From positions 6,533 through 70,532 of the forward strand of contig JANQOF010000048.1 in assembly GCA_028279215.1 (NCBI GenBank): a stretch of DNA of 64,000 nt, in the 5' to 3' direction. The stretch's first letter is position 1. Every line of letters begins with the position of its first letter. The notes beneath the pieces are model-generated. The model was not told the DNA's origin. It ran no database searches and saw only the letters and a program-made list of their open reading frames with translations. The DNA comes from Pirellulales bacterium (GTDB lineage: Bacteria > Planctomycetota > Planctomycetia > Pirellulales > Lacipirellulaceae). A program made the position numbers and the translations under genes. Shown here piece after piece: positions 48,609 to 51,616 of the stretch.

Positions 48609-48663
48609 CTAGCTGCTCAACTCACTCGGCGCGAAGCAAGACATCGAAAACTGCCCTTGCCAT

Positions 48664-48681
48664 TTACTACACTTGTAGTAA
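48664..48681. promoter_or_regulatory. BlaI/MecI/CopY-type operator
   Basis: TTACTACA-CT-TGTAGTAA, a perfect 8-2-8 palindrome with TACA-NN-TGTA core, just downstream of a TTGCCA -35-like hexamer (48657-48662). Confidence 0.85.
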
Positions 48682-48717
48682 CACTCCGCGTAGCCACCTT
48701 CCATGGAGGACCACGCG

Positions 48718-49131
48718 ATGGCAAAACGGCAAGCGAAAGTTCCCCGGTTGCCGGAAGGGGAAATCGAGATTTTGGAAATGCTCTGGCGCGAATCGGCCGT
48801 CACGATTCAGCAAGCACAGACCGCGTTGGGCCAGCCGATTGGCTACACCACGGTGCAAACGCGGCTCAATCGGTTGGTCGAAAAGGGCCTTGTCACCCGC
48901 TCCAAGACGCGGCCGGCTCAATACTCGGCGAACGTAACGCCCGAGGAAATCCGCGAGCGCGACTTGGAAACGCTCGTCGAGCGGGTAAGCAGTGGTCGAG
49001 TGGTGCCGTTGGTGGCGCACTTGGTAAATCGCCGCGATATCTCCGCTGACGAAATCGCCGAGCTGAAGCAGTTGATCGAAGAGGCGGAGCAACGCGCGAG
49101 CGCGTCGAAGCGGAAGGGAGACCAGCAATGA
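48718..49131 (+). CDS. BlaI/MecI/CopY-family repressor
   Basis: LPEGEIEILEMLW, YTTVQTRLNRLVEKGLV, ISADEIAELKQLI; GGAGGA RBS before ATG 48718; ATGA overlap with the next gene. Confidence 0.93.
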   Translation: MAKRQAKVPRLPEGEIEILEMLWRESAVTIQQAQTALGQPIGYTTVQTRLNRLVEKGLVTRSKTRPAQYSANVTPEEIRERDLETLVERVSSGRVVPLVAHLVNRRDISADEIAELKQLIEEAEQRASASKRKGDQQ

Positions 49132-51503
49132 ACGAATGGCTGGAGGTAATCGCGGCCGGCGTCATTCGCACTACCGTCGTGACCAGCGCGGCGGCCCTGC
49201 TGGCGTCGGCGTTGCTCGCACTGTTGCGGGTGCGAAGCGCGGGAACGCATCGACTAGTTTGGCTACTGGTGATCGCTCAGGGCTGGCTATTGGTGCCCTA
49301 TACGTTTTCGATCGAAGTTGCGGACCAACCCAAACCGCGCGCGGCGCAGCCGGCGGCGGAAGCGACCGCGCCGACACCGCTCGTCGCGACCGAATTCGAC
49401 GTGCGTCAGTTTCCACCCAAAGCCGCTACGGCTTGGATTCGGCCAGCCCATGCAGCGCTCCTGTTGTGGTTCGTGGGCATCGTTACGTTGCTAGTGTTGG
49501 CCGCTCGGCGATACGCAACCATTGCCCGCGCAGGTCCACTCGGCCAACCGGTCGACAAGCCTGAATGGGCGGACGAGTGGGCTAGGGTGCGGGCAGACAC
49601 TTCCGTCCGCGGCCCGGTCGAGCTGCGCATCTCGGAGCACTTGGGGCCGCTTGTCTGCTGGGTGCCAAGGGTATTCTTGATCCTGGTGCCACGAACGCTG
49701 TGGGAGCGGCTGCCGAGCGGCGATCGCCTGGCAATCCTTCGCCACGAGCTAGCGCACTGCGAGCGGGGCGACCTTTGGAAAAACTTGGCCGTGTGGCTGC
49801 TAGCGCTGCCGCAATGGTTCAATCCGCTCGCGTGGCTGGCGGTACGGCGATTCGAGGAAGCTGGCGAGTGGGCCTGCGACGAGCAAGTCGCCCGTCAACA
49901 GAATGAGCAGGCAACAGACTATGCCGCAACGCTTGTACGGGTGGTCGACTTCGCCGCCGAGGTTCCATGTGGAGCACTCGGCGTCACGGGAGGCCAACTA
50001 TCGAGGCGAGTGAAACGTTTAATTCATTTACCAAACAAGGAGGTTCGGGAAATGCGAGGTTTGATTTTGCCAGTGTTGTTGGTAGCGATTGGGTTGTTCC
50101 AAGCCGTACGTATCGAGCGTTTGGCGGCCGATGAACCGACCGCCAAACCGACAGTTCAGCCCACGGCGACCGAAAGACCGGTCCCACCCAAGAGCAAGTG
50201 GGCCTCTCACATGCCACCGTACGTTATCGAGCCGCCAGACATCTTGCTGATCGATGTGAAGAAGGTGGTTCCCAAGCCTCCGCACAAGGTCGAGGCCTTC
50301 GATGGACTGTTGATCCGCGCAAAGGGAGTGGACGACGAGGTTGCCCCGATCGCGGACGCCTATTTCGTCCAGCCCGAGGGGCAAGTCGATCTGGGCCCGA
50401 GCTATGGCACCGTCAAGGTCGTTGGCCTCACGATCGCTGAAGCGAAAAAGGCGATCGCCAAGCAACTGGCAAAAGACTACCCCGAGGCGGACGTTTCCGT
50501 TTCGCTCGCCGTGGCCGCAGGCACACAGCAGATTGTGGGCGAACATTTGGTCGGCCCCGATGGCCGCGTGAATTTGGGCTCCTACGGCTCGGTGTACCTC
50601 ACGGACATGACGATCGAGGAGGCCAAGAAGCAGCTTGAGGACCACCTTTCGGAGTTCCTAGTCGAGCCCGAGGTGACCATCGACATCTTTGCTTACAACA
50701 GCAAGAAGTACTACATCATCACCAAAGGCGCGGGCTTCGGCGACAACATTGTTACCGCGCCGATTACCGGCAATGAAACGGTATTGGACGCCATTGCCCA
50801 GATTGGGGGACTTGGCACAAATCGTGCCGCGAAGATCTGGGTATCTCGCCCAGCGCCGAATGGTGTTGGTACCGAACAGGTACTCCCAGTGAACTATGAC
50901 GAACTAGTTGGTGGAGCCGACACCTCCACCAACCACCAACTTTGGCCGGGTGATCGGCTGTTTATTGAGATAGCACAGAAAAAGAATGCCGCGCCCGTTG
51001 CTAGCGTGCATGCGACGATCCGCCTAGCCCGCGATCCAGAAATGAACCTGCGAAACGTCAACGGCCTACAAAGCGGAACCGCAACGATCGGCGACTCCCA
51101 CGTGCTGCTCGGGTTGCTCCGCGTGCTGGAGAACAACCAATTGGCGAAGGTGGTGGCCGCGCCGACCGTCACGGCCGAACAAGGTCAGCGAATGTCGATC
51201 TCGTCGTGCGCTGATGACTGGACCGCACCCGCACGGGATGGTGAGAAAAGTGCCGAGTCCGCGGAAGTCGGCGCGCGGCAGTCAGAGCGGCAATTGCACA
51301 TTGGTCTCACTTACGGAGAGGTGTCCGTTCAATCGGAATTTGCGATTGAAGTGATGGTCGACTCCGGCGGGTACCAACGACAGCAGCGATTCGCGACGGA
51401 GTTCGCCTTGCACGAGGGGCAATCGTGCCTGATTCGCGTGCCAGACGAGCTAACCGACCAAGACGCGCCCGATCTGTACGTGATGGTGACCCGGGAGCGG
51501 TAA
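49128..51503 (+). CDS. M56 (BlaR1-like) peptidase fused to a Wza-like polysaccharide export/SLBB module and a secretin-like tail
   Basis: TM helices, LRHELAH, WFNPLAW, EWACD; aa ~362-614 PPYVIEPPDIL..VGPDGRVNLGSYG..YNSKKYYI..GNETVLDAI..PGDRLFI; C-terminal LRVLENNQLAKVVAAPTVTAEQGQ. Confidence 0.85.
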   Translation: MNEWLEVIAAGVIRTTVVTSAAALLASALLALLRVRSAGTHRLVWLLVIAQGWLLVPYTFSIEVADQPKPRAAQPAAEATAPTPLVATEFDVRQFPPKAATAWIRPAHAALLLWFVGIVTLLVLAARRYATIARAGPLGQPVDKPEWADEWARVRADTSVRGPVELRISEHLGPLVCWVPRVFLILVPRTLWERLPSGDRLAILRHELAHCERGDLWKNLAVWLLALPQWFNPLAWLAVRRFEEAGEWACDEQVARQQNEQATDYAATLVRVVDFAAEVPCGALGVTGGQLSRRVKRLIHLPNKEVREMRGLILPVLLVAIGLFQAVRIERLAADEPTAKPTVQPTATERPVPPKSKWASHMPPYVIEPPDILLIDVKKVVPKPPHKVEAFDGLLIRAKGVDDEVAPIADAYFVQPEGQVDLGPSYGTVKVVGLTIAEAKKAIAKQLAKDYPEADVSVSLAVAAGTQQIVGEHLVGPDGRVNLGSYGSVYLTDMTIEEAKKQLEDHLSEFLVEPEVTIDIFAYNSKKYYIITKGAGFGDNIVTAPITGNETVLDAIAQIGGLGTNRAAKIWVSRPAPNGVGTEQVLPVNYDELVGGADTSTNHQLWPGDRLFIEIAQKKNAAPVASVHATIRLARDPEMNLRNVNGLQSGTATIGDSHVLLGLLRVLENNQLAKVVAAPTVTAEQGQRMSISSCADDWTAPARDGEKSAESAEVGARQSERQLHIGLTYGEVSVQSEFAIEVMVDSGGYQRQQRFATEFALHEGQSCLIRVPDELTDQDAPDLYVMVTRER

Positions 51504-51540
51504 AACCAACCTGGCAAGCTTTGCCGGCTATTCTGTCGAA

Positions 51541-51567
51541 GCGGGCCGAGGGCGATGCTCGGCCCGC
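51541..51567 (+). terminator. GC-rich hairpin after the M56 gene (no clear U tract)
   Basis: gcgggccgag/ctcggcccgc 10-bp stem, 7-nt loop. Confidence 0.4.
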
Positions 51568-51587: not shown

Positions 51588-51616
51588 TTGACGGTTTTCG
51601 CCCAGGGCATTACATT
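51588..51616 (+). promoter_or_regulatory. Sigma70-like promoter of the S10 operon
   Basis: TTGACG, 17-nt spacer, TACATT, about 115 nt upstream of rpsJ. Confidence 0.7.

Follow-up and report, generated by a model that had tools for sequence, protein, structure and literature searches.

The window analysed here, a 64,000-nt stretch of the genome of a Pirellulales bacterium (Lacipirellulaceae; assembly GCA_028279215.1, contig JANQOF010000048.1, positions 6,533 to 70,532 of the forward strand), contains a two-gene operon that represents a conserved, unstudied variant of the BlaI/BlaR1 switch and seems to control itself alone. The first gene encodes a repressor of the BlaI/MecI/CopY family, and the second encodes a protein of 791 amino acids (aa) in which a BlaR1-like M56 membrane protease is followed by a periplasmic module of the Wza type, as found in OPX proteins (those that export polysaccharide at the outer membrane), and by a secretin-like tail. 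Sequence comparisons suggest that the ectodomain was derived from the resident OPX protein and is still tied to it, which favours contact with the export machinery, or the polymer, as the signal. With a probability that we place a little above even, the pair is a self-contained, autoregulated proteolytic switch of the BlaI/BlaR1 type, the ectodomain of which engages the resident exopolysaccharide (EPS) export machinery. Nucleotide positions below are those of the window.

Organization of the operon

The repressor gene (48718..49131, + strand) encodes a winged-helix protein of 137 aa, or of 142 aa if translation starts at 48703 (open reading frame 48703..49131). The start at 48718 is favoured because it is preceded by a Shine-Dalgarno-like GGAGGA (48705..48710, +), which we read from the sequence 7 nt upstream of this ATG. 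The protein matched PF03965 (Penicillinase_R) with 92 bits (E 3e-26, cut-off 22.6), and its matches to the NCBIfam CopY/TcrY and BlaI models were under their cut-offs. The fusion gene (49128..51503, +) was delimited by its open reading frame, Pfam, AlphaFold2 and Foldseek. Its ATG overlaps the stop codon of the BlaI gene by 4 bp (ATGA), and the two genes are translationally coupled. A first-pass annotation, made by a model from the letters of the window alone, had described a BlaI gene overlapping in this way a 791-aa protein with an intact M56 protease and a transmembrane (TM) helix, and the reading frames, Pfam matches and motifs agree with that description. Eight fusion loci were recovered from GTDB species genomes, seven of them complete, and in all seven complete loci a BlaI homologue was located directly upstream of the fusion gene.

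Domain architecture of the fusion protein

The N-terminal part of the fusion protein (aa 1-335; 49128..50132, +) comprises four TM helices and a cytoplasmic gluzincin (M56) domain between TM3 and TM4, as assigned by PF05569, alignment to BlaR1, Foldseek and hydropathy. Peptidase_M56 (PF05569) matched aa 12-296 with 101 bits against a cut-off of 31. The zinc-binding and catalytic motif HELAH lies at aa 206-210 (H206, E207, and H210; 49743..49757, +) and the motif EWACD at aa 247-251. When the protein was aligned to S. aureus BlaR1 (8exs/8exp), residues H206, E207, H210, D215, E247, D251, and R294 corresponded to H201, E202, H205, D210, E242, D246, and R294 of BlaR1, the catalytic or structural roles of which are taken from a cryo-electron microscopy study (PMC9834060). 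All seven were kept in 69 of 69 M56-bearing relatives. The protease is most likely active, since the residues defined in BlaR1 are both present here and kept throughout these relatives.

Hydropathy placed hydrophobic helices at aa 7-37, 43-63, 104-134, and 306-331, and the AlphaFold2 model has long helices at aa 2-33, 38-53, 101-134, and 304-326, so the prediction is a four-helix topology in which TM3 and TM4 flank the protease and TM4 leads into the sensor. The model of the whole protein, built from a 78-sequence alignment, had a mean predicted local distance difference test score (pLDDT) of 86.5. In a Foldseek search of the PDB with this model, Wza and other OPX structures ranked first, followed by S. 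aureus BlaR1 (8exr; E 4e-4, TM-score 0.57 on the target, root-mean-square deviation 3.6) and then the pIV secretin (E 0.02). Neither Pfam nor NCBIfam matched a penicillin-binding sensor domain (transpeptidase or class D beta-lactamase-like) in the fusion protein, and the NCBIfam model blaR1_generic scored 60 bits against a cut-off of 400 bits. Because the penicillin-binding sensor is absent, we regard the protein as a BlaR1-like M56 protein and not as a BlaR1 equivalog.

TM4 is followed by a Pro/Thr-rich periplasmic linker (aa 336-358; 50133..50201, +; sequence RLAADEPTAKPTVQPTATERPVPPKSKW), which is predicted to be disordered (pLDDT <50 at aa 337-358), and then by the OPX module (aa 359-617; 50202..50978, +), which we read as a pair of Poly_export repeats with a putative SLBB-type beta-grasp domain. 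Poly_export (PF02563) matched two stretches from aa 362 onwards with 73 bits (cut-off 28); the SLBB match was weak (E 0.06, under the cut-off), and the NCBIfam polysaccharide-export models PRK15078 and pepcterm_export matched aa 466-616. Foldseek aligned about 250 columns onto domains D1-D3 of Wza, with matches to Wza (7xff, 2j58, and 9r60) and to the Class-3 OPX protein WzaB (9n9a) at E ~1e-8. The earlier description of this C-terminal part as Wza-like therefore holds by hidden Markov model (HMM; PF02563 and NCBIfam) as well as by fold (AlphaFold2 and Foldseek). The module shares its Poly_export and putative SLBB-type periplasmic domains with Wza-type OPX proteins such as E. coli Wza (2J58) and M. 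xanthus Class-3 WzaB (9N9A; classes as in PMC9603273). It differs from them in that the TM helix and the Pro/Thr-rich linker, instead of a signal peptide or lipobox, stand ahead of the OPX part, so that the M56 TM domain is the anchor; it also has no Wza_C helix or GfcC domain and lies outside an EPS locus. The first-pass annotation was thus right in both of its negative statements, that neither a penicillin-binding domain nor a Wza lipobox is found in the protein. As a separate observation, the module varies in length within the family, the first Poly_export repeat being absent from relatives P0010, P0014, P0047, P0057, P0059 and others.

The C-terminal tail (aa 622-791; 50991..51500, +) was read, from AlphaFold2, Foldseek and a tail profile, as a shortened beta domain with remote secretin homology. 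Modelled alone, it gave a pLDDT of 87.5 and a predicted TM-score (pTM) of 0.83, and the sole Foldseek match with a probability >0.9 was the pIV secretin 7ofh (E 2e-3). A profile of 25 tails compared with the PDB found PilQ, pIV, GspD and RcpA at E 0.003-0.8, with 0.003 for PilQ and 0.01 for pIV, and the tail HMM matched a genuine secretin of the host genome with E 2e-5. Pfam returned no match, PF00263 included, for the tail of this protein even when it was searched alone; 7 of the 25 tail relatives matched PF00263 individually (best E 4e-5). Direct pairwise comparison with the bona fide secretin domain of relative P0058 (Secretin model, 81 bits) showed no similarity, and the relation is visible by profiles and fold only. 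The tail profile was aligned to the secretin-domain core of PilQ (6VE2), pIV (7OFH), GspD (5WQ7), and RcpA (8ODN), and the features shared there include the motif L(R)VLEKN..L...P and a terminal YL.VTP strand; the fusion protein has LRVLENN at aa 664-670. In contrast to these secretins, the tail measures about 150-170 aa, covers the profile region ~45-131 without N0-N3 or S domains, is a candidate pore only and stays under Pfam significance. These results support, at a remote level of homology, a shortened and divergent secretin-homology domain; of the earlier proposal of a secretin-like tail, the profile and fold relation stood, and a Pfam match for this protein itself was not obtained.

The secretin-like tail is common to different fusion groups, and the tail position within the M56-OPX family varies among outer-membrane ring or pore modules: FlgH L-ring domains occupy it in P0053, P0056, and P0133, a POTRA domain in P0028, and full Secretin domains in P0058, P0134, and P0136. 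The host genome also encodes two free "mini-secretins" (C74:86994-87698, +, 234 aa; C13:89528-90481, -, 317 aa), small secreted proteins whose matches to the Secretin model are confined to its first ~100 positions. Neither adjoins an M56 gene or matches the tail HMM.

Conservation of the fusion

With the full-length protein as the query, PF05569 and PF02563 were found together in dozens of proteins, which came from Aeoliella, Posidoniimonas, Lacipirellula and a large number of Pirellulales metagenome-assembled genomes. Cultured carriers of the pair include Aeoliella mucimassa, Aeoliella sp. SH292, Lacipirellula limnantheis I41 and Posidoniimonas corsicana. The M56-OPX architecture is present in at least 80 distinct relatives from many independent assemblies, complete chromosomes included. 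The first-pass annotation had left room for a misassembled junction or a recent, non-conserved fusion; both are very unlikely and are ruled out in practice by this conservation over independent assemblies. Sequence databases already contain the architecture, under generic names. In the literature that we searched, no paper linking BlaR1 or M56 proteins with Wza or polysaccharide export was found, so the earlier statement that the architecture is undescribed holds for that literature; a large survey of OPX proteins (PMC9603273) does not mention peptidase or secretin fusions.

Searches with the M56 half alone found almost solely OPX fusions down to E ~1e-50. Past this value, the weaker matches carried other sensors (Skp/OmpH, HEAT, WD40, LRR, and TonB_C), and the nearest M56 proteins without an OPX module had an OmpH/Skp chaperone domain (P0137, P0149, and P0165), which suggests a wider set of M56 sensors made of envelope-machinery parts. 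Among 61 sampled genomes of the host's family, a free OPX gene was present in 59 and the fusion in about 11, including all five of the window's genus.

Two side observations concern M56 genes. The host genome has four others (C7:24107-34470, C15:20863-25454, C27:103388-105420, and C71:47937-49652), three of which adjoin a BlaI gene, each with its own distinct promoter palindrome; the product of the C7 gene is a giant of ~3,300 aa. One relative of 654 aa (P0090) is annotated with both PF03965 and PF05569 and represents a genuine fusion of repressor and protease or else two gene calls merged into one.

Relation of the sensor module to the resident exporter

M56 genes and Poly_export genes number five each in the host genome. 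Among the paralogues of the sensor module, by far the nearest is a lipoprotein-type OPX gene (C38:38952-40298, E 8e-120), the product of which carries the lipobox-like LCTSGC; the two are 70% identical in amino acids and 69% in nucleotides. This free OPX gene adjoins an exosortase gene and a gene for a Wzc-type co-polymerase/tyrosine autokinase (C38:42188-44602). Synteny with exosortase and with the Wzc kinase was found at 42 and 37, respectively, of 72 free-OPX loci and at none of the eight fusion loci, and no polysaccharide co-polymerase (PCP)/Wzc or polymer-synthesis gene stands beside the fusion in the window or in the eight fusion loci. The similarity between sensor and free OPX stops exactly past the last beta-grasp domain, where the 45-aa C-terminal tail of the free OPX is replaced in the fusion by the secretin-like domain; the free OPX itself had no Pfam match to a Wza_C helix. 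We also noted, immediately downstream of this free OPX gene, a gene for a Pro-rich secreted protein of 276 aa without a Pfam match (C38:38049-38879, -), which is present at 15 of the 72 free-OPX loci and is a possible partner of the exporter.

To place the two halves of the protein, trees of the M56 domain and of the OPX module were compared. In the M56 tree, 75 of 80 fusions formed one clade with a Shimodaira-Hasegawa-like approximate likelihood-ratio (SH-aLRT) support of 99; the other five grouped with M56 proteins that carry different sensors and appear to be separate fusion events. In the OPX-module tree, the fusion sequences were scattered among free-OPX clades. A careful tree required at least five changes and rejected a single fusion clade, and when it was limited to fusions of the main M56 clade, at least four changes were required and monophyly was rejected (log-likelihood difference 180, approximately unbiased (AU) test p 3.4e-7). 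A single origin of the OPX module was therefore rejected by the AU test. The fusion group of the window's protein was sister to Aeoliella-type free OPX proteins, the host's own included (100/99), a second group was nested in Lacipirellula free OPX proteins, and the third had a further free clade as its sister. Groups agree between the M56 and OPX-module trees. Long-branch attraction cannot explain the dispersal, because fast fusion branches would be pulled together.

The simplest reading of these trees is one old M56-OPX-secretin fusion in which the resident OPX gene has replaced the middle module on at least four occasions. The 69% nucleotide identity and the lack of high-identity patches rule out recent conversion between the fusion and the free OPX gene, and because such patches are missing, the replacements would be old.

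Putative operator and its occurrence

Upstream of the BlaI gene, we read a -35-like hexamer TTGCCA (48657..48662, +) as part of the inferred operon promoter; a consensus scan called no full sigma-70 promoter there. Between this hexamer and the BlaI start codon, and overlapping the predicted promoter, lies a perfect palindrome, TTACTACA-CT-TGTAGTAA (48664..48681), with arms that are 100% complementary and a TACAnnTGTA core, which is a putative BlaI operator. The palindrome occurs once in the 4.56-Mb genome, against 0.005 copies expected. Three sites with 3 mismatches were found, all intragenic, and a search with a degenerate consensus added one looser match, also intragenic (C14:200816). Across the exact, <=3-mismatch and degenerate searches, the site at the operon's own promoter was the only one outside genes, and the EPS locus, which was scanned, contained no copy. 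The other BlaI paralogues of the host have different palindromes.

In orthologous operons, TTAC[GT]AC-N4-GT[CA]GTAA is found at the same position, just 3' of CTTGC(C/G)A. We scanned 11 fusion-bearing genomes with an 18-nt degenerate pattern, and eight of them matched, with one site each, always just upstream of the fusion operon. Since the only such site sits at the operon's own promoter, the detectable transcriptional output is the two-gene operon itself. The first-pass annotation had supposed that the regulator relays envelope status to the transcription of other genes; the single copy in this genome, the same result in seven related genomes and the empty EPS locus do not bear this out, and the absence of a second operator argues against a broad relay.

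The operon resembles BlaR1-BlaI and MecR1-MecI of S. aureus and Bacillus licheniformis (MEROPS M56; PDB 8EXP-8EXT) in several respects: a repressor gene adjoins a gene for a four-TM membrane gluzincin, HEXXH and EXXXD motifs are accompanied by a conserved Asp and Arg, the sensor follows TM4 on the outer face, and a putative palindromic TACA/TGTA-type operator lies over the promoter of an operon that would regulate itself. It differs from them in that the OPX module and the secretin-like domain replace the penicillin-binding (class D beta-lactamase-like) sensor, the gene order is blaI then blaR with the ATGA overlap, and there is neither a divergent resistance gene nor a second operator. M56/BlaI pairs that do not sense beta-lactams have been described as atypical BlaIR pairs in M. 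tuberculosis (Rv1845c/Rv1846c), M. abscessus and P. aeruginosa (PvmSR; bioRxiv 10.64898/2026.08.03.742534). The present pair is like them in this respect; unlike it, they have no ectodomain, whereas here a 450-aa ectodomain of identifiable origin is present.

Neighbouring features

A terminator-like hairpin (51511..51527, +) begins 8 nt past the stop codon of the fusion gene; it is weak, has a T-poor tail and is suggestive only, as terminator-like sites here are no more frequent than in shuffled sequence. A second, GC-rich hairpin (GGGCCGAG...CTCGGCCC, 51544-51567) lies ahead of a promoter-like site, TTGACG-17-TACATT (51588-51616), just 5' of rpsJ. The S10 ribosomal operon, which occupies the remainder of the window, begins at these two elements. 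Proximity to the S10 operon was seen in one related locus, that of Aeoliella straminimaris (L001), where it is interrupted. In the comparison of related fusion loci, no conserved neighbour or divergent target gene was found beside the fusion operon, apart from BlaI. An open reading frame of 153 aa (48667-49128, -) runs antisense to the BlaI gene; at so high a G+C content, it is most likely spurious.

Discussion

Under the proposed mechanism, BlaI dimers would bind the palindrome and repress the blaI-blaR operon, and the ectodomain of the fusion protein would contact the resident EPS export machinery. The likely partner is the OPX ring or an inner-membrane Wzc-like co-polymerase, because such interfaces would force the sensor to match the local OPX. 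TM4 would then relay altered engagement to the active site in the cytoplasm, in the way that ligand binding is relayed in BlaR1, BlaI would be cleaved and the operon derepressed. Induction would yield mainly more fusion protein and repressor. As no other operator is detectable, the ectodomain is probably sensor and effector at once, and this suggests that the fusion protein also acts as an auxiliary subunit, a tether or a mimic with a self-adjusted dosage. That the system senses EPS export, as the first-pass annotation had put forward, is a plausible reading with partial support: the sensor has as its closest paralogue the OPX of an exosortase/Wzc locus, and it appears to have been re-derived repeatedly from the local OPX lineage, and the part of that proposal which did not survive is the relay to other genes.

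Several points weigh against a sensor that engages the exporter. The fusion is patchy, being found in about 11 of the 61 family genomes, and it is therefore not required for EPS export as such. The sensor modules evolve several-fold faster than the free OPX genes, as judged from branch lengths, which fits relaxed constraint as well as adaptive tracking. Sensor and resident OPX have not exchanged sequence recently, as they are 69% identical in nucleotides and only 46% of their identical residues share a codon, and the old replacements could be neutral gene conversions between paralogues instead of selected matching. Near-perfect palindromes alone are detectable, so that weaker sites or protease substrates other than BlaI would be missed, and the host assembly is 95% complete. 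Finally, secretin rings contain about 12-15 subunits. BlaR1 is a dimer (PMC9834060) and Wza an octamer (PMC9601211), and because these stoichiometries differ, a simple model of co-assembly is uncertain.

A bolder form of the exporter-contact reading, which we think unlikely, holds that the ectodomain is a mimic or spare subunit of the resident OPX translocon, evolutionarily matched to it; the switch would read the assembly or occupancy of the EPS machine, or the presence of an agent that targets it, by direct contact, and its sole response would be the amount of the mimic. If this were true and could be extended to the M56 relatives with Skp, FlgH, POTRA, and secretin modules, envelope assembly in planctomycetes would be monitored by a general class of "machinery-copy" sensors.

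Among the alternatives to contact with the exporter, the one that survives best, though we judge it unlikely, is a polymer sensor, in which the OPX-like beta-grasp domains would bind periplasmic polysaccharide, either the cell's own EPS at stalled export or imported glycans, and occupancy would activate the protease. The module consists of Poly_export and putative SLBB-type domains, of the kinds that line the polymer path in Wza (PMC9603273), and the tracking of the local OPX lineage would also be expected if both proteins accept the same lineage-specific polymer. However, a sugar-binding site is not readable from the sequence, the output appears limited to the operon, which is odd for a nutrient or stalled-export response, and no EPS or carbohydrate-active enzyme (CAZyme) genes are conserved beside the pair.

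Somewhat less probable still is a self-induced structural or decoy module, in which an inner-membrane-tethered ring with OPX- and secretin-like parts would serve as an auxiliary conduit, an envelope tether or an OPX mimic, and BlaI and the M56 protease would set its dosage only. Such a mimic could, for example, titrate something that attacks or binds the exporter. The sole operator in each of the eight genomes belongs to the fusion operon, so that induction would make mostly fusion protein; the tails of relatives are other outer-membrane ring or pore modules (full Secretin, FlgH L-ring, and POTRA), and the sensor has kept its likeness to the resident OPX, which mimicry would require. An analogy is offered by BlaR1, whose sensor is itself of a penicillin-binding fold. 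Against this stand the lack of evidence for oligomerisation or outer-membrane insertion and of any known attacking agent, and the shortening of the secretin part (profile ~45-131), which may not form a pore. Artefact or decay, whether the junction was wrongly assembled, the fusion arose recently by chance or the gene is a remnant without activity, is hardly credible, given the architecture shared by at least 80 distinct proteins of many independent assemblies, the open frames, the conserved catalytic residues, the confident models and the lack of a G+C break over the M56/OPX junction.

BlaI/BlaR1 is the textbook case of one-step proteolytic signalling, and beyond the sensing of beta-lactams almost nothing is known of the signals of M56 proteins. 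For the switch that we propose to engage the exporter, a sensor of identifiable origin, tied by its history to that exporter, provides a concrete and testable idea of the signal, and the single operator indicates an unusual logic, with the sensor also being the product. Planctomycetes have many M56 pairs with other envelope-machinery modules, and if one of them were understood, a large and unstudied family of switches for envelope surveillance could be explained.

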